The notes: generated by a model from the sequence alone, not told the origin. A stretch of DNA of 64,000 bases from Candidatus Solibacter usitatus (GCA_016213245.1 JACRBC010000136.1:670-64669), one strand, 5' to 3'. Positions 3,424 through 16,178 are shown, numbered from the stretch's first letter. Translations and numbers: made by a program.

Positions 3424-4085
3424 TAGGGCGGTTTGGAGTCAATCATTAACATACTGGCAAGAGGCGACGTAGCGGGCGCATTCGTTTGGGAAGAGGGTGC
3501 TGAGCAGTGCGCCGATCTCGTTCCAGAGGGCGTCGACGGTGCGGGTGGCGGCTTTGCGGAGCAACGCCTTGAGTTTGGAGAAGAACTTTTCAATCGGGTT
3601 CAGGTCGAGCGACTACGGTGGTAGATAGAGCAGCGTCGCGTGGACGGCCAGGATCGCTTCCCTGACTCCGCCCACCTTATGACTGCTGAGATTGTCGAGG
3701 ATCACGATGTCGCACGGCCGCAACGCCGGAACCAGGAAGCCGCGTGTATAGGCCAGAAACATGGCGCCATCCATCGGCCCATCGGTGACCATTGGCGCGA
3801 TCAACCGGTCCTGGCGCAATCCGCCCACGAAGGTCGTCGTTTTCCAGTGGCCGTGCGGGACCGAGGCTACGCAGCGTCGGCCTCGGGGCGATCGACCACG
3901 GCACCTGGCCATGTTGGCCGTCGTCCAGGTTTCGTCAACAAATACGAGCCTTTGCGGGTCAAGGCCGGGTTGGCATTCGCGCCACAGCCAACGCGCCATC
4001 TGCACGTCTTTCCGCTCTTGCTCGCTGGCGTGCAGGGGTTTTTTCAAGGGTAAGATCCCACTTGTCCAAAATCGAAACCGCTCTA
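3424..4085 (-). mobile_element. IS630-family element, internally deleted and non-autonomous
   Basis: Ends TAGGGCGGTTTGGA (3424-3437) and TAGAGCGGTTTCGA (reverse complement of 4072-4085) match 12/14 as inverted repeats, each starting with the TA target typical of IS630; about 660 bp only. Confidence 0.88.
3439..4047 (-). pseudogene. IS630 DDE transposase pseudogene
   Basis: LVFVDET, VILDNLSSHK and LYLPP*SLDLNPIEK motifs; TAG at 3613-3615 replaces the Tyr of YSPDLNPIE and the frame continues to TGA at 3439; N-terminal HTH half absent. Confidence 0.9.
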
Positions 4086-4505
4086 ATTCGAGGGATCGGT
4101 GTCCTTCAACGCCGGGTCGCGCGGGTCCAGCGCCATCTCATCCTGGCAGCACTGGCAGGGGCCGGGCGTCCAGGCGCGGACGGCGCAGACGGCGCACCAG
4201 TAGGTGACGACGAGCCTGCGACCGGCGCGGTGGACGAAGAGGGCGCGGAGGTGGATGGGATCCACCACAAACCGGCGCGGCGCGGCGAAGCGGCCCTGCG
4301 CCTCGAAGTCGTCGTCCTTCAACCGGGCGTCCCGCAGGACGCCGGCCGTGGCGGCGTCTGCTTCCAGCACGACTACGGCTCCATCGCGAAGCGTGATGGC
4401 CGGCGGCAGGGAGGGGTCCTGGCGCAGCCTGCCGCGCACGACCTGCTGCGCGGCGCGAAGGCGCGGAAGCAGGGCGACGAAGGAGAGCAGCAGGCGGCGG
4501 GTCAT
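4083..4505 (-). CDS. Hypothetical exported protein with C-terminal CxxC...CxCC putative metal-binding motif
   Basis: 140 aa, RR-type leader MTRRLLLSF, YWCAVCAVRAWTPGPCQCCQ; starts 2 bp after the ATPase-like gene stop. Confidence 0.7.
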   Translation of the reverse strand: MTRRLLLSFVALLPRLRAAQQVVRGRLRQDPSLPPAITLRDGAVVVLEADAATAGVLRDARLKDDDFEAQGRFAAPRRFVVDPIHLRALFVHRAGRRLVVTYWCAVCAVRAWTPGPCQCCQDEMALDPRDPALKDTDPSN

Positions 4506-4507
4506 AC

Positions 4508-6211
4508 CTACTCAGACAGATGCGGCCGCGCGTGCAGGAGTCGCAAGCCGTTCAACGTGACGGCCAGGGTGGCGCCCATGTCGGCGGCGACGGCCATCCA
4601 CAGCGTGGCCGCACCGGCGAAGGCCGCCGCCAGGAAGAGGGCTTTGGCGGCGAGAGCGAAGACGATGTTCTGCCGGACGACGGCCAGCGCCCTGCGCGCG
4701 TGGTCGATCAGGAACAGCACGCGGCGCGGATCGTCGGTCATCAGGATGACGTCGGCGGACTCGCGGGCCATGTCGGCGCCGTGGCGGCCGAGGCTGATGC
4801 CCAGCGAGGCCAGCGCCAGGGATTCGGCGTCGGCGACACAATCGCCCAACATGCCGGCGCTGCCGTACTGCCGCAGCAGGGCGGCCATGGCGCCCGGCTC
4901 GGCGTCCCGCAGCCGGACCGGCTCGACGCCGCGGGCCCGCAGCGCTTCTTCGTAGCCTGGAAAGACGCCCTCGCCGTGCAGCGCCAGGACGGGCCGCCGC
5001 GCGGCCTCCTCCAGGAACGCTCCGCCCTTCACGAGCACGCCCTGCCCGGCCGCGCTGGCAAGCGCGGCGGTGATGCTCACCGGAGTGGAGATGACCAGAG
5101 CGCACGGGCACGAGATGAGCAGAATCACCATGCCCTGATAAAACCACTCGCCCCACGCTCCGCCCCGGAACAGGGGCGGCACGATCGCCACTGTGAAGGC
5201 GAGCAGCAGCACCGCGGGCGTGTAGCGACGGCTGAAACGCTCGATCAGGCGTTCGCTGGGCGAGCGGCGCGAGCGGGATTCCTCCACCATGCGCACCATG
5301 CGCGCCAGAGTGGTGTCCGAGGCCGGCCTCGTCGTGCGAATCTCCAGCGTGCCGCTCTCGTTGATGGCTCCGGCGAACACGGCGCCACCGGCCGACTTTT
5401 CCACGGCGACGGACTCGCCGGTGATCAGCGCCTGGTTGACCAACGAGGTCCCGCCTACTACTTCGCCATCGAACGGGATTCTCTCGCCCGGCCGCACGCG
5501 AATCAACGTGCCGGGCGAGACAGCGCCCACCGCGGCGCGGTGCTCATGCTCCCCGTGCACCACCCAGGCCTCGGCCGGCGCCACGGCCAGCAACCGGGTG
5601 ATGGCCCGCCGGGCCCGGGCCATGCTCCAGCTTTCCAGCCGCCCGGCGAGCGCGAAGAGGAACGCCAGCGTGGCGGCCTCGGTCCACTCGCCCAACGCCG
5701 AGGCCCCAGCCAGCGACAGCACCACCAACAGGTTCATGTCCGGCCGGAGCGCCCTCAATGTCCTCCAGGCCCGCGGCAAGGTGTGGCCGGCGCCGGCCAC
5801 CACGGCCACGGCAAAAAGAGCAAGCGATAGCGCAGGCATCCGCCTGTCGCCGTGCTGGTGCGCCAACAGCGCGGCCACTGACGCTGTGCCCTGCCATAGC
5901 TGCCAGCTCATGCCGGCAGCCAAGCCCAGCCCGGAAACCCACGTCAGCGCCTGCCGCCAGCGCTCTCGCCGCGTCGCCAGCCGTGCCGGGCCGGCCTGCC
6001 AGGGCTCGCAGCGCATCCCCACCGCCCGCACGACCTGCTCAATCGAGGCCGGCGTCACTTTGGCGGGCGCGTACTCGACGTCCATCCGAGCGTGCAACAC
6101 GTCGAACCGCAGGTCGCGCACACCCGCCACACGGCTGAGCCGCGCGCGCAGCAGGGAGACCTCCTCGGCGCAATCCATGCCGAGGACGCGATACTGAAGC
6201 GTTTTGTTAAT
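4508..6211 (-). CDS. Heavy-metal P1B-type ATPase-like protein lacking the DKTGT motif and N-domain
   Basis: HMA domain (GMDCAEE), DMNLLV, TGES actuator, SCPCALVISTP, ADMGATL; first ATG at 6178 but frame is open to ATT at 6211 behind a GAGGAG RBS. Confidence 0.85.
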   Translation of the reverse strand: MNKTLQYRVLGMDCAEEVSLLRARLSRVAGVRDLRFDVLHARMDVEYAPAKVTPASIEQVVRAVGMRCEPWQAGPARLATRRERWRQALTWVSGLGLAAGMSWQLWQGTASVAALLAHQHGDRRMPALSLALFAVAVVAGAGHTLPRAWRTLRALRPDMNLLVVLSLAGASALGEWTEAATLAFLFALAGRLESWSMARARRAITRLLAVAPAEAWVVHGEHEHRAAVGAVSPGTLIRVRPGERIPFDGEVVGGTSLVNQALITGESVAVEKSAGGAVFAGAINESGTLEIRTTRPASDTTLARMVRMVEESRSRRSPSERLIERFSRRYTPAVLLLAFTVAIVPPLFRGGAWGEWFYQGMVILLISCPCALVISTPVSITAALASAAGQGVLVKGGAFLEEAARRPVLALHGEGVFPGYEEALRARGVEPVRLRDAEPGAMAALLRQYGSAGMLGDCVADAESLALASLGISLGRHGADMARESADVILMTDDPRRVLFLIDHARRALAVVRQNIVFALAAKALFLAAAFAGAATLWMAVAADMGATLAVTLNGLRLLHARPHLSE

Positions 6212-6230
6212 GAGAACGTCTCCTCAATAA
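6207..6230. promoter_or_regulatory. AT-rich imperfect palindrome, candidate metalloregulator operator in divergent promoter
   Basis: TTAATGAG-AACGTCTC-CTCAATAA (arms 7/8 complementary), overlapping the RBS/start of the ATPase-like gene and abutting a minus-strand TACAAT -10 (6230-6235). Confidence 0.45.
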
Positions 6231-6278
6231 TTGTACGCTAGCCGTCGTGTGCCCGGATCGGGTACAAACAAGAGAAGC

Positions 6279-6626
6279 ATGGCGCACCACAGGATCCACG
6301 GCAACCATAGTCACGTTCACGGAGAGGACTGCGGCCACACCGCGATCCGGCACGACGACCACGTCGACTATCTCCACGAAGGGTGTCTGCACTCGCCGCA
6401 CGGCGACCATTTCGACGAATGCGTGCTGGAGGTTTCGGCGTCGAATCCGGCCGAGTGCACGCCGGAGCACCGGTGCCAGGGCCACGAGCCGTCGCACATC
6501 CATGCGCCCGGATGCGGCCACGAAGCGGTGCCCCACGGGGACCATGTCGACTACCTGGTGGACGGGCACCTGCACCATCCGCACGGCGGGCATTGCGACG
6601 ACCACGGCAAAGTGGACCTGGCGTGA
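6279..6626 (+). CDS. Small His/Cys-rich putative metal-binding protein
   Basis: 115 aa from ATG 6279; two copies of H-x-H-xxx-CGH-x-A-[IV]-x-H-x-DHVDYL-x-x-G-x-LH-x-PHG-x-H. Confidence 0.85.
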   Translation: MAHHRIHGNHSHVHGEDCGHTAIRHDDHVDYLHEGCLHSPHGDHFDECVLEVSASNPAECTPEHRCQGHEPSHIHAPGCGHEAVPHGDHVDYLVDGHLHHPHGGHCDDHGKVDLA

Positions 6627-9600
6627 CTCCGGGCGTCTTTATTGAACCTTTGTCCCTGCCCACCTTGATCCGGGACGCGGCGCCCGATGAAGCGGCATTG
6701 CTGGCTGTTTCGGCGCCGCCGCTGTCGTATGCCGGCCTGGGCGAGTTGATGGACCGGACCTCGGCGGCGCTGGCGCAGATGGGGATCGAGCACGACGATC
6801 GCGTCGCTCTGGTTGCTTCCAACGGCCCGGAGATGGCGGCGGCGTTCCTGGGCATTGCGGCGTCCTGCGGATGCGCGCCTCTGAATCCGGGCTACCGCGA
6901 AGAGGAGTTTCGATTCTATCTGGAGGACCTGAAGCCGTCGCTGCTGGTGATCGAACAGGGCATGGGAGAGGCGGCGGCGGCGGCGGCAGCCGCGCTGGGG
7001 ATCCGCGTCCGCCGGCTGTTGCCGGAGCCGCACAAGGGCGCGGGGTGGTTCGGGCTGGAGGGCGCCGGCGAAGGCGGCGAGCCGCGGTACGCTTCGCCGG
7101 AATCCACGGCGCTGTACCTGCACACGTCGGGGACCACGAACCGGCCCAAGCTGGTTCCGCTGACGCAGTACAACCTGCTCTGCTCGGCGGCGAATGTAGC
7201 GCGCACGCTGGCGCTGTCGCCGGCGGACCGCTGTTTGAACGTGATGCCGCTGTTCCACATCCACGGCCTGATCGCGGCCGTGCTGGCGTCGCTCTCGGCC
7301 GGGGCCTCAGTGGTGTGTTCGCCGGGTTTTCAGGTGACGCGATTCTTCGACTGGATGGATGAGTTCGAGCCTACGTGGTACACGGCGGTGCCCACCATGC
7401 ACCAAGTCATCCTGGAGCGCGCCGCGCTCGATCCAGAACGGGCGAAAAGGGCGCGCTTGCGGTTCGTGAGGTCATCTTCCGCCTCGCTGCCGCCGCAGGT
7501 GATGGAGAGGCTGGAGGAGGTGTTCCGGGCGCCCGTGGTGGAGGCTTACGGCATGACGGAAGCAGCGCATCAGATGGCCTGCAACCCATTGCCGCCGCTG
7601 GCGCGGAAGCCGGGCGCGGTGGGGCTTCCGGCCGGGCCTGAGGTGGCCGTGATGGACGCGGGCGGGCGGCTGCTGGCGCAGGGCGAGCGCGGTGAAATCG
7701 TGATCCGAGGCCCGAATGTAACGGCGGGGTATGAGGCCAATCCGGAGGCGAACCGCACAGCGTACTGTGAGGGCTGGTTCCGCACCGGAGACGAGGGTTA
7801 CTTCGATGCGGACGGGTATCTGTTCCTCACCGGCCGCCTGAAGGAGATGATCAACCGCGGCGGAGAGAAGATCGCGCCGCGCGAGATAGACGAAGCTCTG
7901 ATGGAACATCCGGCGGTGGCCCAGGCTCTGGCCTTCGGCGCGCCTGACCCGAAACTGGGGGAGGAGGTGGCCGCGGCGGTGGTGCTGAAGCCGGGCGCAT
8001 CCGCCAGGGAGAGCGAGCTTCAGGACTTTCTTGCGGCCAAACTGGCTGACTTCAAAATCCCCCGGCTGATCGTGTTTCTGGAGAAGATCCCGAAAGGCCC
8101 TACGGGCAAGATGCAGCGCGTCGGCCTGGCCTCGCGGCTGGGGATCGAGAACATCCATCATGCCCCGGCGGCGGCAGATGGCGAAGCGACGGCGCTGGCC
8201 GGCGCTCTGGCGGGCATCTGGACGGAGGTGCTGCGGCGCGACGACATCACAGCGCAGAGCCATTTCTTCGATTGCGGAGGGGATTCGATTCTGGCGGCGC
8301 AGGCGGTGGGGCGCGTGAACACCCTGACGGGGCGCGCGCTGAACGTAATGCACCTGTTCCGGGCGCCCACGCCGGGTGCGTTGGGGGCGTGGCTTGAGGC
8401 CAATCCCGGGGAGGCGCAGGCGCCGCCCGCTCCCGGGCCGTCCGCCGATCCGTCCAAGCTCAGCCCGGCGCAGGAGCGCATGCTGTTCCTGCACTCCTAC
8501 GAGGAGGAGCCGGCGCTGTACAACCGGCCCGCGTTGCTGCGGCTGCGCGGAGCGGTGGATGGGGAGGCGCTACGCGAGGCGCTGGACGATGTGGTGAAGA
8601 GGCACGAGGCGTTCCGCACCTGTTTCCAGGCGGAAGACAACGGCTGGTCGGCGAGTATCGCGGCGGCGGCTGCGTGTCCGTTGGAGACGCATGACTTGCG
8701 AGCGCGAGCCGATTCCCGACTGAAGACGGACGAGTTGACACGAGAGTTGCTGTCGCGCCCCTTCGATCTCTGCCAGCCGCCGCTGCTGCGCGTGGCGCTG
8801 CTGCAGGTGGAAGACGAGGAGTACCGGCTGGCGGTCTCGATGCACCACGTGATCTCGGACGGCTGGTCATCCCGTGTTTTTTTCCGCGACCTCTGCATTG
8901 CGTACGCAGCCCGGCGGGCCGGCGTGGCGCCCGTGTTTGAACCCTTGCGGGCGCGCTATGCCGACTACGTCGCCTGGCTCGAACAGAGGCTGTCCGGGGA
9001 ACGGCGCGGGCAGTTGGAGGCCTATTGGAAAGGGCGGTTGGAGGGTGCGCCGCCGCTGCTCGAAGTGCCTACGGACTTTCCGCGTCCGGCGCGCGCGACG
9101 TTCACGGCCGGCGTGGAGCGGCTGACGCTGCCCGCCCAACTGACCGCGCGGTTGCGGGAGATTGCGCGCGGCTCGGACGCGACGCTGTTCATGGTGCTGC
9201 TGGCCGGGTTCCAGGCTTTGCTGGCGCGGACCGCCGGCCTGACAGACGTGGTGATCGGCACGCCGTCGGCCGGCCGAACGCGGCCGGGATTTGAACCGCT
9301 GGCCGGGTTATTCGGCACGACTCTGCCGCTGCGCTGCGACCTCTCCGGCAATCCGTCGTTTCACGAGTTAGTAGTGCGCGCCCGCGAATGCTCACTGGAA
9401 GCGATCGCGCACCAGGACCTGCCCTTTGAAAAGCTGGTTGACGTCCTGCGCTTGCAGCGCAACCTGAGTCATCCTCCCCTGGTGCAAGTCACATTCCAGT
9501 TGCGCAATGTGCCCCTTGAACGTGCCGGGCTGTCCGGCTGCGCCACGGAGGAAATGGAGTGCCACTCCGGCCTCTCGCCGATGGATCTGAACCTTGAGGC

Positions 9601-11548
9601 GACAGAGACGCCTGACGGCTTGACCTGCCGGCTCGACTACCGGCGCGATCTCTTCCGGCCGGAGACGGCGCAAGCCTTGCTGGCCGGTTACAGGTCCCTG
9701 CTGACTTCGGCCGCGACGGACATTGATCGATGCCTCGGTGACCTTGCTCTCACCGGTGGTGACGACGCACACGAGAACTCCGAATTCAGGCGAGGCCCCG
9801 CGAGGGAGATCGGCCGGCCGATCGTCGACGACATTCTGGAAACCGCGCGGCGGAATCCCGGCAGAACTTTGTTCTGCTGCGCCGGACGGTCCTTGACCTA
9901 CGGCGCCTACCTGGACCTGGCCTTGCGCATAGCCGGCCGAATTCAGGACGCCGGCATCAGGCCCGGCTCACGCGTGGCGTTGCTGGCCGACCGTTGCGTC
10001 GAAGCGCCTACGTGGCTGCTCGGCATTTGGCTGGCGGGATGCTGCAGCGTGCCCATCGATCCCTCCGCTCCACCGAAGCGAGCCGCATTCATGCTGCGCG
10101 ATTCGGGCGCACAGGCCGTCTTGGTGCAGAGTTTACTCGCCGCGACGCTGGTGGAGGCCGCAGTGCCCGTCATCGCACTGGAGAGCCTGCCGCAGTGGCG
10201 TGCAGCGGTTTCGTGCGGAGAGATCCACCCAGGCGCCGGCGCATGCGTGGTGTACACATCGGGTTCCACCGGGCAACCGAAGGGCGTGGAGATCACGCAC
10301 AAGTCGTTGCGCAACGTCTTGGACTGGCTGGCGCGAGAGGTTGGACTGAGGCAGGACGACGTGTTCGTGAACGCGGCATCCTATGCATTTGACGCTTCCT
10401 TCGCGGACTACTACCTGGCTCCGGCGCTGGGCGCAGTGGTGCATATTCCGGACTCCGGCGAGATCCGGGATGGCCAGCGGCTGGCGGCACTGTTTGAGCG
10501 CGTGGACGCCACCTACACCAACGCCACGCCGACGACGTTTGTCACGATGCTGGAGAGCGGCTGGCGCGGCTGCCCGCGCTTGTCCGCGCTGAGCGGCGGG
10601 GAAGCGCTGACGCCGCAGGTGGCGGCGGCGCTGCTGCCGCGAGTGCGCACGCTGTGGAACGTGTATGGGCCGAGCGAGACCACCGACATCTCCGCCGCGT
10701 GCCGGGTGCTCTCCGCCGAACCGCCAATCTCAATCGGCCTGCCGGTGGATAACACGACGTTGCACGTCCTGGACAAGTGGGGCCGCCCTGCGATCGCCGG
10801 CTTTCCGGGAGAACTCCATATCAGCGGCGCGGGCGTGGCGGAAGGCTACATCAACCGGCCCGAACTGACCGCGGAACGGTTCGTATTCCTGGACACCCCA
10901 GCCGGCCCCATCCGCACCTACCGTACGGGTGATCTGGTGCGCAGCCTGCGGGCCGGCGGGCTTGAGTTTCTGGGCCGCATGGACCAGCAGATCAAGCTGC
11001 GCGGCCACCGCATCGAACTCGGCGAGATCGAAGCCGCCCTTCAGGTCTGTCCGGGCATCGCCGCCGCCGTCGTCGTCCTGCAAGAGCATCCCGCCGACCG
11101 CATCGCCGCGTTCTACTGTGGTACTGCTGCGCATGCGCCAACCCCGGACGAGCTTCGCGCCGCGCTCCGCGCCAGCCTTCCGGAGCACATGGTGCCGGCC
11201 CTGATCCGGAGGGTGGATGCGCTGCCGCTCACAACGAGCGGCAAGATCGACCGCAAGGCGCTGGCCGCGCTCGATGCCGGACAGGAAGGCCATTCAGGTG
11301 CGCGCGGCTTTACTCCATTGGAGTCCGACGTTGCAGCCTGTTTCACGGAAGTTCTCGCTCGCCGGGACATCGGCCCGGATGACGACTTCTTTGATCTCGG
11401 CGGCCATTCACTTGCGGCGGTCCGGCTGATGAACCGCCTCATGTCGCGCTTCGGCGCCGCGCCAACCATCCGGGAGTTCTTCTGCGCGGCTACCGTGCGC
11501 GATACCGCCGCTCGAATCCAAGCCAGAGAGAAGGAGACCGCTGGATGA
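6623..11548 (+). CDS. NRPS: acyl-CoA ligase-like (oxalate-CoA ligase-like) starter-T-C-A-T
   Basis: LHTSGTTNRPK, EAYGMTEAAHQ, FRTGD; T FFDCGGDS; C HHVISDGWS; A YTSGSTGQPKG, NVYGPSE, YRTGD, KLRGHRIELGEIE; T FFDLGGHS. GTG start at 6623 overlaps the upstream TGA (GTGA). Confidence 0.93.
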   Translation: MTPGVFIEPLSLPTLIRDAAPDEAALLAVSAPPLSYAGLGELMDRTSAALAQMGIEHDDRVALVASNGPEMAAAFLGIAASCGCAPLNPGYREEEFRFYLEDLKPSLLVIEQGMGEAAAAAAAALGIRVRRLLPEPHKGAGWFGLEGAGEGGEPRYASPESTALYLHTSGTTNRPKLVPLTQYNLLCSAANVARTLALSPADRCLNVMPLFHIHGLIAAVLASLSAGASVVCSPGFQVTRFFDWMDEFEPTWYTAVPTMHQVILERAALDPERAKRARLRFVRSSSASLPPQVMERLEEVFRAPVVEAYGMTEAAHQMACNPLPPLARKPGAVGLPAGPEVAVMDAGGRLLAQGERGEIVIRGPNVTAGYEANPEANRTAYCEGWFRTGDEGYFDADGYLFLTGRLKEMINRGGEKIAPREIDEALMEHPAVAQALAFGAPDPKLGEEVAAAVVLKPGASARESELQDFLAAKLADFKIPRLIVFLEKIPKGPTGKMQRVGLASRLGIENIHHAPAAADGEATALAGALAGIWTEVLRRDDITAQSHFFDCGGDSILAAQAVGRVNTLTGRALNVMHLFRAPTPGALGAWLEANPGEAQAPPAPGPSADPSKLSPAQERMLFLHSYEEEPALYNRPALLRLRGAVDGEALREALDDVVKRHEAFRTCFQAEDNGWSASIAAAAACPLETHDLRARADSRLKTDELTRELLSRPFDLCQPPLLRVALLQVEDEEYRLAVSMHHVISDGWSSRVFFRDLCIAYAARRAGVAPVFEPLRARYADYVAWLEQRLSGERRGQLEAYWKGRLEGAPPLLEVPTDFPRPARATFTAGVERLTLPAQLTARLREIARGSDATLFMVLLAGFQALLARTAGLTDVVIGTPSAGRTRPGFEPLAGLFGTTLPLRCDLSGNPSFHELVVRARECSLEAIAHQDLPFEKLVDVLRLQRNLSHPPLVQVTFQLRNVPLERAGLSGCATEEMECHSGLSPMDLNLEATETPDGLTCRLDYRRDLFRPETAQALLAGYRSLLTSAATDIDRCLGDLALTGGDDAHENSEFRRGPAREIGRPIVDDILETARRNPGRTLFCCAGRSLTYGAYLDLALRIAGRIQDAGIRPGSRVALLADRCVEAPTWLLGIWLAGCCSVPIDPSAPPKRAAFMLRDSGAQAVLVQSLLAATLVEAAVPVIALESLPQWRAAVSCGEIHPGAGACVVYTSGSTGQPKGVEITHKSLRNVLDWLAREVGLRQDDVFVNAASYAFDASFADYYLAPALGAVVHIPDSGEIRDGQRLAALFERVDATYTNATPTTFVTMLESGWRGCPRLSALSGGEALTPQVAAALLPRVRTLWNVYGPSETTDISAACRVLSAEPPISIGLPVDNTTLHVLDKWGRPAIAGFPGELHISGAGVAEGYINRPELTAERFVFLDTPAGPIRTYRTGDLVRSLRAGGLEFLGRMDQQIKLRGHRIELGEIEAALQVCPGIAAAVVVLQEHPADRIAAFYCGTAAHAPTPDELRAALRASLPEHMVPALIRRVDALPLTTSGKIDRKALAALDAGQEGHSGARGFTPLESDVAACFTEVLARRDIGPDDDFFDLGGHSLAAVRLMNRLMSRFGAAPTIREFFCAATVRDTAARIQAREKETAG

Positions 11549-14500
11549 GCGATTGCAACCGGGAGCGAAGCGGGGCGAACGCCGGAGTTGAGCTGAGTTT
11601 TGCCCAGCAGCGGATGTGGATTGCGGAGCAACTTCAGCCCGGCGGCGCCGCCTATCACATCCCCAGCGCCTGGCGTGCGGCCGGGGAGCTGCGCGTAGAG
11701 GCGCTGCGCCGAGCGTTTCAGACCGTATGCCGGAGGCACTCCGCGCTGCGCACGGTGATTCGGCCGGCCGAAGGCACACCCTGGGCCCAGGTGCTCGATG
11801 AGCCGCCGGCCGTTGTCGAAGCCGATTGGACTGCGCTGTCCCCAGCGGAGGTTCAGCAGGCCGTGGAGCGCCAATCGTGGCGGCCTTTTGATCTGGCCGG
11901 CGAGGCGCCCGCGCGCTGCCTGCTGGCCCGCCTGGCCGGCGGCGACCACCTGCTGCTGTTCCTGTTTCACCACATCGCGTTTGACGGGTGGTCTTGGTCC
12001 ATTTTCAATTGCGAGCTTTCAGAGGCATACGCTGCTGCATGCCGTGGAGAGGAACCGGAGCTGGAGCCGCTGGCATTGCAATACTCCGAATATGCGGCGG
12101 GCCAGCGCCAGTCGCTCACGCCGGAGGTAATCGCGCAAATGGCGCAGCCCTGGATCAAGCGCCTCGCAGGCGCGCCACGGTTGCGCTTATCCACGCGCCA
12201 GGGCACGGGCGCCGGCAAGGAAAGTACGGACGGGGAATTGCTGTTCACCATGAGCGCAGCGGCCGCCGAAGCGGTGACGGCGTTCGCGCGCACTCACCGC
12301 ACCACGCCGTTCGCCGTGCACCTGGCGGCCGTTCAGGCGCTCCTGGCGCGCTACTCAGGACAGGCCGACTTCTGCATCGGCGTGCCGTTCGCCAACCGTG
12401 AGCCGGAGGTGGAAGGTCTGATCGGCTTCTTTGTGAATACGCTGGCCTTCCGCGCCCGGTTGGAGGACGACCCTACCTTCCGCCAGGCTGTCGGGCGCAC
12501 CGCTTCCGACACTCTCGACGCGCTGAGTGAAGGCCGACTGCCCTTCGAACAACTAGTGGAGCGGATGCAGCCGGATCGCACCCTGGGCGAGAATCCGCTG
12601 TTCGGCGTGTTGTTCGCTTACCAGAATTTCCCGAGCACTCCCTTGTCGCTCTGTGGTGTAAGCCTGGAGCAGATAGAAGTCCTGTCGCCGGCGTCCGTCG
12701 TGGAGCTGAGCCTCTCGCTGACGCCGTCGCCTGGCGGGCTGCTGGGGACCATCCGGTATTCCGCGGCCCTGTTCGACCGGCCGTGGGTGGAGAGATTCGC
12801 CGGGCACTATTCACGGCTGGTTGAGACGTGGCTGAGCGCGCCGGATTTGCCGCTGTCGAAGGTGGAGTTCATCTCAGGGCAGGAGAAAGAGCGGCTTCTG
12901 GCGCTCGGCCGCGGGCACTGCGGCGACTATCCGAAACTCCCCATCCATCGCATCTTCGAGGAGCAGGCTGCCCGGCGGCCCGAGGCGATCGCATTGCGTT
13001 CGGGGCAGATCACCGAGACCTACGCGGATCTCAACGCGCGTGCCAATCAACTGGCCCGGCAGTTGGTCGATGCCGGCATAGCGCCCGGCAGCGTGGTCGG
13101 CGTGCTGATGGACCGGTGTATGGAGATGGTCGTCTGCTGGTTGGCCGTGCTGAAAGCGGGCTGCGCTTATCTACCGCTGGAGCCGGCCGATCCGGCGGCG
13201 CGGCTGGCCGGACAATTAGCCGATTGCGGGGTTGGCGCGCTGATCGCACACCAACCGGTGCCCGGCGCGGTCCGCGCAGCGGCTGCGTGTTGCATTTTTC
13301 CCACGGGCGGCCGCAGCGGGGAGGATACGCAGAACCTCAGCATCGAACCGTCCATCGGGCAGGCGGCGTGCATCATGTTCTCCTCGGGCTCGACGGGCAA
13401 GCCCAAAGGCGCCGCCATCCCGCATCGCGCCATTCTCCGGTTGCTGTTTGACAACGGCTTCGCCGAGTTTTCCAGCGGCGACACGTTCCTTTTCATGGCG
13501 CCGCCCGCTTTCGATGCCAGCACCCTGGAGGTATGGGGGCCGTTACTCCACGGCGGAACCTGCGCCGTACTTTCCCCCGGGAGGGTTTCGCTTCCGGCGG
13601 TGTCCGCCGCCGTGCGCAACAACGGGGTCACGGCCATGTGGATCACCTCGTCTCTCTTCAACGCGCTGATCGATGAGACGCCAGAGGCGCTACGCCCTGT
13701 GCGCCTGATCATGACCGGAGGCGAAGCGCTATCGGCAGGGCATGTGGCGAAGGCCCTGCGGCTGCTTCCCGACACGAGATTAATGAACGGCTACGGTCCT
13801 ACCGAGAACACGACGTTCACCACCTGTTGGCAGATTCCGAGAGACTTTCCGGAGACCGCCTCCGGCGTTCCCATCGGCACGCCCATCGCCAACACGCGCG
13901 TCTACGTCCTCGACGCCGCCCGGCAGCTCGTGCCGGAGGGCGTGGCGGGCGAACTCTACGCCTCCGGCGACGGTGTGGCGCTGGGTTACCTCGGACTTGC
14001 GGAGATGACTGCCGAGCGATTCCTTGCGGACCCGTTCCATCCAGGTACTCTCATGTACCGCACGGGCGACATCGTGCGCTGGAACGGATCGGGCACATTG
14101 GAATTCGTCGGCCGCGTCGACGATCAGGTGAAGATCCGCGGGCATCGCATCGAACCGGGCGAAGTGGAGGCGGCGCTTGCCGGACACCCGGCCGTTTCCC
14201 AGGCGGCCGTGATCGTGCGCACGGACCGGCGAGGCGAAAAAGCGTTGGTTGCCTACTACACGCTGCGGCCGGGCGGTAGCGCCGGCACGGGGGAGTTGCG
14301 GGAGTTTCTCCGCCTCCGTCTTCCCGAATTCATGCAGCCGGCCGGCTTGGTGGCACTGGGGAGTTTTCCGCTCTTGCCTTCCGGCAAGATCGACCGCGCG
14401 GCACTTCCCGAGCCTGAACAGGCAAGAGCGCCTGGCGATGCGCCGCGGCAGGGACGGGAAGCGGAGATCGCCGCGGTGTGGAAGCGGGTGCTCGGCATGC

Positions 14501-15474
14501 AAAACATCGTCCGCACCGACAATTTCTTCGACCTCGGCGGGCATTCGCTGGCGGCGTTGAGGGTGGTGTCGGCGATCGAACGTGAATTGAAGCTGCGGGT
14601 TACATTGGCGGATCTCTTTTCGGCGCCCGTGCTTGCGGACCTGGCCGCCCGCCTGGACTGCAACTCTACCGATCAGCGCACCCTGGTGCCGGTGCGGTCT
14701 GAAGGTTCGCTGACGCCAATCCTGACCCTTTCCGCAGGACCGCGCTTCCGGCAACTGGCTGCCCGGCTCGGTGACCAGCGGCCCGTGCACTGGCTTCCGG
14801 CAATCGATGCGACACTGCTGCCCCATCCCTGCCGCTGCGAGGACATCGCGGCCTGGTATGTGCGCCTGCTGATGGGGCAACGACCCTCCGGCCCGTGGAT
14901 CCTGAGCGGCTGGTGCCTTGCTGGCACGCTGGCATTTGAGATTGCGCGCCAGCTCGAGCCGCACGGTCGCGGCGCGGTCCTTCTCCTCGACGCTCCCGGA
15001 CCGAATCAACGAGCCGGAGTTTCGCAACTGCAGTCCCTGGGCAACCTACTTGCCCGCCTCGCTTATCACGGGCACGCGATGATGCGCGGCGAACGTGGAC
15101 CCTTGATCCCATACGTATTGGAGCGAATCAGGACCATTCGGGAGCGGCGCGAATTGTTGCAGTTCGCCCGGACATACGAGCAGTCTCTCCGCTCCGGCGG
15201 GGCGCAGCCTGAATCGGTGGATGAACAACTCCTGTCCAACTATGCGGCCCTTCGGTATACGCCGCCCTCGCCGCTGGGCTGGCCAGTCCTGCTGGTGCAC
15301 GCCAGGGACCGGCATGGGCTGCCGCAGTCCAAGCCGGACGCGGGCTGGGCGCCCCATGCCCCGAGGCTGATTGTGGAATGGGCTGACGGAGACCATGGCA
15401 CCATGTTTGAGGAGCCGTTCCTCACCAGCCTTGCCAAGGTGGTCCGCACTTGGCTGGACGGCCTTCCGGATTGA
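11545..15474 (+). CDS. NRPS termination module C-A-T-TE (A domain probably Val)
   Basis: C HHIAFDGWS; A FSSGSTGKPKG, NGYGPTENTTF, hand-read pocket DALWMGGTFK (Val-type); T FFDLGGHS; TE GWCLAG...LLDA...GDHGTM; ATGA overlap with the first NRPS. Confidence 0.93.
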   Translation: MSDCNRERSGANAGVELSFAQQRMWIAEQLQPGGAAYHIPSAWRAAGELRVEALRRAFQTVCRRHSALRTVIRPAEGTPWAQVLDEPPAVVEADWTALSPAEVQQAVERQSWRPFDLAGEAPARCLLARLAGGDHLLLFLFHHIAFDGWSWSIFNCELSEAYAAACRGEEPELEPLALQYSEYAAGQRQSLTPEVIAQMAQPWIKRLAGAPRLRLSTRQGTGAGKESTDGELLFTMSAAAAEAVTAFARTHRTTPFAVHLAAVQALLARYSGQADFCIGVPFANREPEVEGLIGFFVNTLAFRARLEDDPTFRQAVGRTASDTLDALSEGRLPFEQLVERMQPDRTLGENPLFGVLFAYQNFPSTPLSLCGVSLEQIEVLSPASVVELSLSLTPSPGGLLGTIRYSAALFDRPWVERFAGHYSRLVETWLSAPDLPLSKVEFISGQEKERLLALGRGHCGDYPKLPIHRIFEEQAARRPEAIALRSGQITETYADLNARANQLARQLVDAGIAPGSVVGVLMDRCMEMVVCWLAVLKAGCAYLPLEPADPAARLAGQLADCGVGALIAHQPVPGAVRAAAACCIFPTGGRSGEDTQNLSIEPSIGQAACIMFSSGSTGKPKGAAIPHRAILRLLFDNGFAEFSSGDTFLFMAPPAFDASTLEVWGPLLHGGTCAVLSPGRVSLPAVSAAVRNNGVTAMWITSSLFNALIDETPEALRPVRLIMTGGEALSAGHVAKALRLLPDTRLMNGYGPTENTTFTTCWQIPRDFPETASGVPIGTPIANTRVYVLDAARQLVPEGVAGELYASGDGVALGYLGLAEMTAERFLADPFHPGTLMYRTGDIVRWNGSGTLEFVGRVDDQVKIRGHRIEPGEVEAALAGHPAVSQAAVIVRTDRRGEKALVAYYTLRPGGSAGTGELREFLRLRLPEFMQPAGLVALGSFPLLPSGKIDRAALPEPEQARAPGDAPRQGREAEIAAVWKRVLGMQNIVRTDNFFDLGGHSLAALRVVSAIERELKLRVTLADLFSAPVLADLAARLDCNSTDQRTLVPVRSEGSLTPILTLSAGPRFRQLAARLGDQRPVHWLPAIDATLLPHPCRCEDIAAWYVRLLMGQRPSGPWILSGWCLAGTLAFEIARQLEPHGRGAVLLLDAPGPNQRAGVSQLQSLGNLLARLAYHGHAMMRGERGPLIPYVLERIRTIRERRELLQFARTYEQSLRSGGAQPESVDEQLLSNYAALRYTPPSPLGWPVLLVHARDRHGLPQSKPDAGWAPHAPRLIVEWADGDHGTMFEEPFLTSLAKVVRTWLDGLPD

Positions 15475-15482
15475 AACCGAGT

Positions 15483-16178
15483 ATGTCCAGCGACTGGCAG
15501 CCACGACTTCCGCCACGCATTCGCGTGGCTCTCATCGACGTGGATGAGCCGGGCGCGCGGGTGTTGGACGATCCCGCGCTGATCAGCCCCGAGGAGGCCG
15601 CGCGCGCGCGCCGCTTTCGTGGAGAGAGCTTGGAGCGCCGCTACCGGCGCGCACACGCCGCGCTGCGGCTGCTGCTGTCCAGGGAAACCGGATGCGCGCC
15701 GGCGCTGCTGCCGATCTCCACGCGCGACGGCGGCAAGCCGTTTCTGCCGGGCTCCACAGTGTCGTTCAACCTGTCGCACTCCGGCCCTCTCGCCGCCGTG
15801 GCGCTGGCCAGCGGCTTGGAGGTAGGCGTCGACGTCGAAGCGCCGCGCCGGCTGCACGGCGACGCGCTCAGCCTGGCGGCGCGCTTCTACCATCCGGAAG
15901 AGTGCCGCATGCTGACGGCGGTGCCGGGACGGGGAAGGGAAGCGGCGTTCCTCAGGCTGTGGACGGCCCGGGAATCGCTGGTGAAGGCGCTCGGCGCCGG
16001 GCTGGACCAAATGCCGGGCGACTTCAATGCCGCGCCGCTGCTGGAAGGAGCGCAGGCAGTGGAGTGGGGCGGGTGGACGGTGCGCGTGATGCCCGCGCCC
16101 GCAGGAGCGTTCGCGGCCGTGGCGGCGCCGGGCGCCGGGTGGGGCTATGAACTGGTTTCGCCGTTCTGGCTGGCCTGA
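15483..16178 (+). CDS. 4'-phosphopantetheinyl transferase (Sfp type)
   Basis: GKP, FNLSHS, VGVDVE, LWTARESLVKALGAGL motifs; alternative TTG start at 15471 overlapping the NRPS stop. Confidence 0.92.
   Translation: MSSDWQPRLPPRIRVALIDVDEPGARVLDDPALISPEEAARARRFRGESLERRYRRAHAALRLLLSRETGCAPALLPISTRDGGKPFLPGSTVSFNLSHSGPLAAVALASGLEVGVDVEAPRRLHGDALSLAARFYHPEECRMLTAVPGRGREAAFLRLWTARESLVKALGAGLDQMPGDFNAAPLLEGAQAVEWGGWTVRVMPAPAGAFAAVAAPGAGWGYELVSPFWLA

Follow-up and report, generated by a model that had tools for sequence, protein, structure and literature searches.

The whole stretch of DNA analysed here, which we call the window, comprises 64,000 nucleotides from Candidatus Solibacter usitatus (GCA_016213245.1 JACRBC010000136.1:670-64669). 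At 4508–6211 on its minus strand lies a gene whose product is a P1B-2 pump by descent but, judged by its defining motifs, is not a P-type ATPase. Hydrolysis of ATP via a phosphoenzyme is predicted to be impossible. What, then, might such a protein do? We consider the chances even that it acts as a carrier independent of ATP, taking up Zn2+ or a similar divalent metal and standing in for the ZupT-like ZIP importer. Uptake of zinc or a similar metal without ATP is likely because this protein family and the usual zinc importer almost never share a genome; we infer the equivalence with ZIP from gene distribution only. Among the channel, sensor and scaffold roles suggested in the initial annotation of this DNA, the exclusion of ZIP would favour passive metal uptake.

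P-type ATPases are defined by the phosphorylation of one aspartate, and gate opening in these proteins is thought to be strictly coupled to this reaction. How much of this machinery remains? The gene and its parts are listed below, with residues numbered from the ATG at 6178; counts refer to the 54 degenerate and 97 intact proteins of the alignment described further on.

4508–6211, minus strand: P1B-2 pseudo-ATPase gene; open frame of 567 amino acids from the likely ATT start, or 556 from the ATG at 6178.
4964–4978, minus strand: dead phosphorylation site HGEGV, then the N-domain deletion junction; the junction is identical in a second genome, G006 (L002).
4829–4846, minus strand: GDCVAD, a degenerate GDGxND, in the P-domain remnant; the remnant is still constrained over 96 codons (nonsynonymous divergence, dN, 0.04 at synonymous divergence, dS, 0.57).
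5999–6211, minus strand: N-terminal HMA domain with the single-Cys motif MDCAEE (PF00403, E 0.001, under the cut-off); the Cys is present in 50/54 degenerate proteins, the other four being partial.
5852–5860, minus strand: histidine motif HQH of the MA–MB loop, on the periplasmic side as predicted from P1B topology; H107 in 45/54 degenerate and 93/97 intact proteins.
5540–5557, minus strand: histidine cluster HGEHEH of the A domain; H208 in 52/54 and H213 in 53/54 degenerate proteins; absent from SsZntA.
5411–5422, minus strand: A-domain TGES; TGE in 53/54 degenerate proteins despite the lack of an aspartyl phosphate to remove; its codons vary synonymously.
5102–5110, minus strand: CPC metal ligands (C357, C359) of M4; in 54/54 degenerate proteins.
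4580–4645, minus strand: Lys512 of M5 and Asp533 of M6, the P1B-2 Zn/Cd/Pb signature; each in 54/54 degenerate proteins and aligned with the M5 Lys and M6 Asp of SsZntA.

The stop-free frame matches TIGR01512, the cadmium-family P1B ATPases, at 332.8 bits (cut-off 313.5). After GVLVKGGAFLEEAARR, the site of the phosphorylated aspartate is occupied by His401, and no phosphorylatable DKTG(T) is present. The SEHP motif, TGD (which reads RDA) and the conserved Lys of the P domain are all missing, and a Pfam search returned no PF00702 match in the protein. The initial annotation was thus correct about the altered motifs, and about the HMA domain, the TGES (residues 253–256), the CPC and the C-terminal M5 and M6 helices lying in one open frame. 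It had also described the N domain as cleanly removed. The deletion is real but wider than that domain: 44 residues separate the Asp site from GDG here versus 198 in the intact protein P0016, a loss of about 154 residues that takes the N domain together with the segment of the P domain bearing TGD and the conserved Lys. From the Asp site to the TGD position there are 24 residues as against more than 140 in intact pumps, the N domain having gone with its P1B HP and GxG motifs. The A domain is well preserved (PF00122, E 6e-48); the HMA domain has one Cys in place of CxxC. An AlphaFold model built from 16 sequences (mean pLDDT 74, pTM 0.59), such as the initial annotation had called for, retains the eight-helix P1B membrane domain, the A domain and a small alpha/beta P remnant. 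Foldseek places SsZntA (4UMW and 4UMV) at the top of its matches; the highest TM-score, 0.67, belongs to the AfCopA structure 7R0G, which we do not take as evidence of conformational state. Nor was the missing part found elsewhere: tblastn of the source genome, G000 (78.6% complete), revealed neither a second copy nor another frame encoding it, and the only PF00122 match in that genome is this protein.

Is the gene then a slowly decaying relic, or a product of misassembly? Such an origin would suit a fragmented metagenome-assembled genome with an IS630 element nearby, and one orthologue, that of G015 (L006/L033), is indeed frameshifted, the only such case in its genus. We nevertheless find the idea hardly credible. 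The homologue in G006, 89% identical, has the same deletion junction at dN 0.069 and dS 0.60 (dN/dS 0.11, NG86), on which ground misassembly was rejected. All 16 genomes of a Paludibaculum-like genus possess an orthologue without DKT, and 15 of the 16 are open frames. Maximum-likelihood omega, estimated with dS partly saturated, equals that of intact pumps, at 0.034 for seven Asp-less genes, 0.051 for five N-deleted ones and 0.035 for nine intact ones; for the membrane core the values are 0.019, 0.023 and 0.024, respectively. Codons of the key residues vary only synonymously. Contigs of runs X1 and X2 showed no joint or insertion by which the N domain would be restored; as none of the listed pieces crosses the junction, and X1 is possibly the sample of origin, we do not count this as support. 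We conclude from these comparisons that the gene is neither a fresh pseudogene nor an artefact of assembly but encodes a non-phosphorylatable P1B-2 protein maintained by selection, much as first proposed.

In the loci examined, the genus orthologues occupy the same chromosomal site beside a trp/aro operon. They differ in what became of the engine: two are of the HGEG type and four of the DAxx type (one frameshifted), all with the N domain deleted, whereas five GRAG, four DRQG and one AREG forms have a shrunken N domain without HP and GxG. The proteins named Paludibaculum fermentans, a cultured species (P0009, P0015), are of the GRAG type and lack the Asp. G015 additionally carries a second, full-length, ArsR-linked copy (L464) and czc-island pumps. 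No full-length DKTG orthologue was found within the genus, and none of the outcomes that would have refuted the initial annotation was seen. Intact sisters occur in neighbouring genera, two of them (L037, L046) sharing both flanks of the genus locus and two others (L053, L094) the downstream flank. The initial annotation, right about the loss of the Asp, had taken the intact motif to be DKTGT; the closest intact relatives read DKTG[V/I].

Which parts have been kept across the degenerate forms at large? We aligned 156 proteins, the top matches of searches rather than a random sample (120 + 25 + 11); 97 were intact DKTG proteins, five read DKTA or otherwise and 54 were degenerate. In the degenerate set both CPC cysteines, the M5 Lys, the M6 Asp, Glu167 of M2 and Tyr319 of M3 are invariant, while all catalytic P- and N-domain motifs are eroded: only two columns of the P core are at least 95% conserved, versus 23 in the intact proteins. 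According to a study of a P1B-2 pump (PMC13677743), Zn is likely to be bound by the two CPC cysteines together with the M6 Asp, and function depends critically on the Lys.

The survival of TGE, which ordinarily would act on the phosphorylated aspartate, suggests another possibility: that the protein forms one half of a pump that is split or partnered, with phosphorylation supplied in trans by an N/P-domain protein encoded separately or by another, intact P-type ATPase, on which the retained TGE would act. A P1B-2 pump structure has been solved as a dimer (PMC13677743). We regard a partnership of this kind as very improbable, for no stand-alone N/P protein was found in the 78.6%-complete G000, and 26 of the 27 N/P matches in five near-complete genus genomes are P-type ATPases already listed. 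Those five genomes encode no P1B-2 other than our protein; their further P1B pumps bear Cu+-type YN/MxxSS motifs, and the remaining P-type ATPases are KdpB or, by length (five loci being unparsed), of the Mg/Ca type. The 27th match is a 619-amino-acid frame of G004 (G004:C25:701515-701712), a weak P-domain match absent from the PF00122 matches.

If metal is not pumped by this protein, what else handles zinc in these organisms? Neither ZnuA nor the family ZIP was detected in any of the 16 genus genomes, apart from one weak PF02535 match in G005. CDF exporters are present in 16/16, with two to five matches each. Additional P1B-2 pumps occur in three of the genomes; four of these pumps are canonical DKTGT proteins, and czc-type efflux genes lie next to two of the four. 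Export therefore seems to be covered by other genes.

We then compared pump and importer in an even sample of 251 genomes of the family, G135 (ZIP only) entering these tallies alone. The pump profile was matched in 70/251 at an E value no higher than 1e-120, and a gap in the scores set the limit of a ‘core’ group at 1e-155. Motifs were checked afterwards: DKTGT was read in 18/19 weaker matches, the remaining one being a fragment, and those of the 51 core members that were inspected read DKTG[V/I] or were degenerate. The family's ZupT-like ZIP (PF02535 and BbZIP matches) was found in 175/251 genomes. Core pump and ZIP coincide in three genomes; 48 have the core pump only, 172 ZIP only and 28 neither (5, 46, 171 and 29 when ZIP is counted by Pfam). 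ZnuA accompanies the core pump in just 1 of 51 genomes. Canonical DKTGT pumps behave differently, coexisting with ZIP in 9/18 genomes (3/51 core versus 9/19 weaker matches, Fisher p 0.0002). On a 120-tip RpoB tree, with 14 changes of the pump and 13 of ZIP, Pagel's test favours dependence (likelihood ratio 37.2, 4 degrees of freedom; 0/32 simulations as high). Swaps are seen even within genera, between G152 (pump) and G229 (ZIP) and between G237 (pump) and G165 (ZIP). We also asked whether ZIP sits at the pump's locus in the swap pairs; G152 and G229 have no common neighbours there, and that idea was dropped. In Cupriavidus metallidurans, which lacks ZnuABC, ZupT is the main Zn importer, and divalent-cation import can be driven by a charge gradient, as stated in the passages seen of PMC12632275. 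The family's own small ZIP (L196–L213) has a CPxCxHxHxHxxC loop, and several of its copies seem to start at TTG or GTG, with a −10-like hexamer lying just a few bases upstream, which suggests weak, nearly leaderless expression.

Could the distribution instead reflect export? The protein may still be an exporter driven by the proton motive force, exchanging metal for H+ via Lys512–Asp533, with gain of the pump and loss of ZIP both being responses to metal-rich habitats. Its descent from Zn/Cd exporters is in keeping with this, as are the linkage of intact sisters to ArsR/SmtB and a His-rich protein and the partial shortage of ZIP beside canonical pumps. The membrane potential, however, disfavours the passive export of a cation. 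Moreover, none of the degenerate loci examined has arsR, that of the independent EKNG lineage (L358) among them, and a search of five genus genomes found no close ArsR orthologue (four gave no match and the fifth only a 40% match elsewhere). CDF exporters are plentiful, and the extra canonical pumps were acquired separately. Continued export is, in our judgement, quite unlikely.

A second alternative dispenses with transport. Some eukaryotic P-type ATPases have pump-independent roles, and the protein might be a metal sensor, buffer or loading platform that binds Zn or Cd through its membrane site, HMA domain and His clusters and signals or passes the metal to another protein, ZIP having been lost for a separate cause. 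The A domain, TGE, HMA domain and His clusters are all kept, as such a role might require, and a divergently transcribed gene for a His/Cys-rich protein adjoins. Yet the neighbourhoods of the degenerate loci hold no conserved signalling partner or regulator, the Cys-rich gene immediately downstream is near-core in the family and mostly unlinked, the A domain too is gone from a sister lineage, and the exclusion of ZIP is left unexplained. We think this alternative unlikely, if somewhat less so than export.

Several observations weigh against uptake in place of ZIP. At least ten intact core loci carry ArsR/SmtB together with the His-rich gene, a layout typical of responses to Zn excess; it points to descent from exporters and, where the intact members are concerned, is the chief evidence against import. 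The A domain has 24 columns at least 95% conserved in degenerate proteins (23 in intact ones), which a simple pore would not need. Canonical pumps too are short of ZIP (9/18 genomes, against 163/181 of those without a pump), and habitat or kinship must therefore explain part of the pattern. The Pagel tips were picked by trait, which may inflate the result, and deep branches of the tree are weak; in a starred-branch pair test there were only five independent pairs, ZIP differing as predicted in 2.5 on average and never in the opposite sense (p 0.25). Nramp genes are present, and 28 genomes, some near-complete, have neither ZIP nor the core pump, so that neither gene is essential. Finally, the palindrome over the pump's start, described below, was found at 0/40 scanned ZIP or znuA loci. 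We considered whether a minimal form without A, P and N domains fills the genomes that have neither gene; it was whole in 0/10 of those tested, among which were one divergent DKTGV pump (G023) and one fragment with a stop (G130).

How might passive uptake work? With the cycle of phosphorylation gone, the membrane domain would alternate between states open to the inside and to the outside, or settle in a leaky one. Metal would move downhill, drawn by a membrane potential negative inside and by the scarcity of free Zn2+ in the cytosol. The A domain and the P remnant may have been kept as a scaffold or gate joining M2–M3 and M4–M5. Metal would also be bound by the HMA domain and the His clusters, which might restrain its flow. 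Expression at a low and steady level would be in keeping with a start codon as weak as ATT and with the loss of the ArsR/SmtB gene.

Did the engine disappear once or repeatedly? In trees from which the P and N columns, duplicates and the frameshifted L006/L033 were excluded, the degenerate forms fall into several groups among intact pumps, and a single origin is rejected (p-AU 0.002), the group tested including long branches. In the quick tree quoted here, of 57 rows, all 24 engine-less rows lie inside a clade of 45 (SH-aLRT 95), whose intact members read DKTG[V/I], with one DKTA; the 12 DKTGT rows all fall outside it. When the membrane part of a 494-amino-acid form served as query, it brought up many proteins of 380–450 amino acids lacking A, P and N, a sister lineage in which only the HMA domain and membrane helices are left. 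A DKTAA lineage (P0069, P0084, P0113, L053, L025), with a full N domain and GDG changed to GDSVHD, is nested among the dead forms and possibly represents an early stage of decay.

Taken with the zinc genes, these trees lead us to a tentative account, which we rate a little short of an even chance: an acidobacterial branch of export pumps bearing DKTG[V/I] would have been reversed into a housekeeping zinc importer that displaced ZupT. Because uptake runs downhill, the ATP engine would then have been lost several times along separate routes, and what remained would be a uniporter or channel working passively. Since ZIP is likewise excluded by the intact DKTG[V/I] members, the reversal would have come before the engine was lost, an order of events that would explain why repeated loss is confined to this subclade. 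The surviving forms may, with the same tentativeness, be arranged in a series from intact pump, through proteins with shrunken or deleted N domains, to the bare carrier of HMA domain and membrane helices.

Two neighbouring genes deserve description.

6279–6626, plus strand: divergent His/Cys-rich repeat protein of 115 amino acids, metal-buffer-like; in intact sisters arsR sits between its gene and the pump.
4083–4505, minus strand: Cys-rich protein of 140 amino acids, likely exported; 2 bp downstream of the pump gene, which it adjoins across the genus.

The first is a candidate SmtA-like metal buffer; its family is automatically named ‘putative threonine dehydratase’, almost surely wrongly. 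The second has an RR-type N-terminus, a C-terminal Cys cluster and a predicted fold resembling DUF5818/HMBD, under the bar for naming. It is single-copy in 184/251 family genomes, mostly ones without the pump subclade, and is therefore a positional neighbour; a dedicated partnership with the pump was rejected. Past this gene lies a piece of an IS630 transposase (3613–4047, minus strand), and since relatives hold aldose-epimerase-like and OmpH/BamA-like genes there, G000 is rearranged at this point. On the other side, between the His-rich gene and the trp/aro operon, a two-gene non-ribosomal peptide synthetase cluster with a phosphopantetheinyl-transferase-like gene occupies 6623–16178; its first gene is at the same site in G006 and G008.

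In the intact sisters an ArsR/SmtB gene often separates the His-rich gene from the pump (L046, at 5476–5890; also L141, L378, L397, L016, L020, L051, L052, L061, L104, L471 and L464). It is most often accompanied by a box resembling TTGAACA-N2-TGTTCAA, usually at the start of arsR and 60–185 bases from the start of the pump; in L061 and L104 the box abuts the pump's −10.

Where does translation begin? Position 6211 opens an ATT codon 8 nt behind GAGGAG, and this ATT (6209–6211, minus strand), codon −11 before the ATG, is likely to be the true start. ATT or ATC stands at codon −11 before the MDC motif in 26/31 aligned genes, often behind a purine-rich, Shine–Dalgarno-like stretch, and the non-AUG start recurs in intact and dead members alike and in many Vicinamibacterales homologues (L001–L105, L137–L165). 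Owing to it, gene callers trim away the first strand of the HMA domain. The start is overlain by a further element.

6207–6235, minus strand: conserved −10-like hexamer, TACAAT, and after it the palindrome TTATTGAG-N8-CTCATTAA, over the Shine–Dalgarno sequence and start codon; a possible operator.

The palindrome, which may also be written TATTGA-N10-TCAATA (6207–6230), is kept across several genera (L019, L020, L046, L138, L139, L141, L360, L365) and is distinct from the SmtB-type box. We take it to resemble actinobacterial Zur boxes, being one base longer. G000 has one Fur-family gene and a single palindrome site, no second one rising above shuffled controls. A global Zur/Fur regulon was rejected, the second sites in other genomes lying at unrelated genes, and so was an RNA hairpin (z-scores −0.96 to +0.25).

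How does the protein compare with known systems? SsZntA (PDB 4UMV/4UMW) is its best PDB match both by sequence (E 2e-75) and by fold (Foldseek rank 1). With the P1B-2 pumps of the ZntA/CadA type (SsZntA, and MmCadA in the passages seen of PMC13677743) it shares the HMA domain, the MA–MB–M1–M6 helices, CPC, M5 Lys, M6 Asp and an A domain with TGE. Unlike them it lacks DKTG, the N domain, TGD and GDGxND, has a trimmed P domain, bears His clusters in the MA–MB loop and A domain, has Val as the equivalent of Met187 and probably starts at ATT. HmtA (PA2435) of Pseudomonas aeruginosa is described in PMC8456098 as a P-type importer of Zn and Cu and likewise combines a P1B scaffold with proposed inward movement of metal; by that description it is an ATP-hydrolysing P-type ATPase, whereas our protein is non-phosphorylatable. 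It would share with ZupT/ZIP (BbZIP, PDB 5TSA) the proposed task of ATP-free uptake; unlike these it has the P1B fold and no PF02535 match. The A/P/N-less P1B-2 proteins (about 390–450 amino acids) belong to the same DKTG[V/I] subclade and keep the membrane site and HMA domain; they are separate losses that include the A domain, whereas here the A domain and a P remnant are retained. A literature search, with subscription journals mostly uncovered and supplements outside it, found no natural non-phosphorylatable P1B protein and no account of metal transport in Paludibaculum. The passages seen of a 2023 review of open questions on P-type ATPases (PMC10654040) contain no such pseudo-pump. ATP-free metal uptake, the likely role here, was described for this class of pump in none of the literature searched.

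Databases name these proteins ‘Cd2+/Zn2+-exporting ATPase’; the annotation, and counts of metal-resistance genes that draw on it, are therefore wrong at least on the ATPase. A naturally occurring, selected series that drops its engine stepwise while keeping the ion site would reveal the route from primary pump to passive carrier, and also the part played by the A domain where there is no phosphate to remove. It bears directly on the debated idea that P1B proteins import metal.
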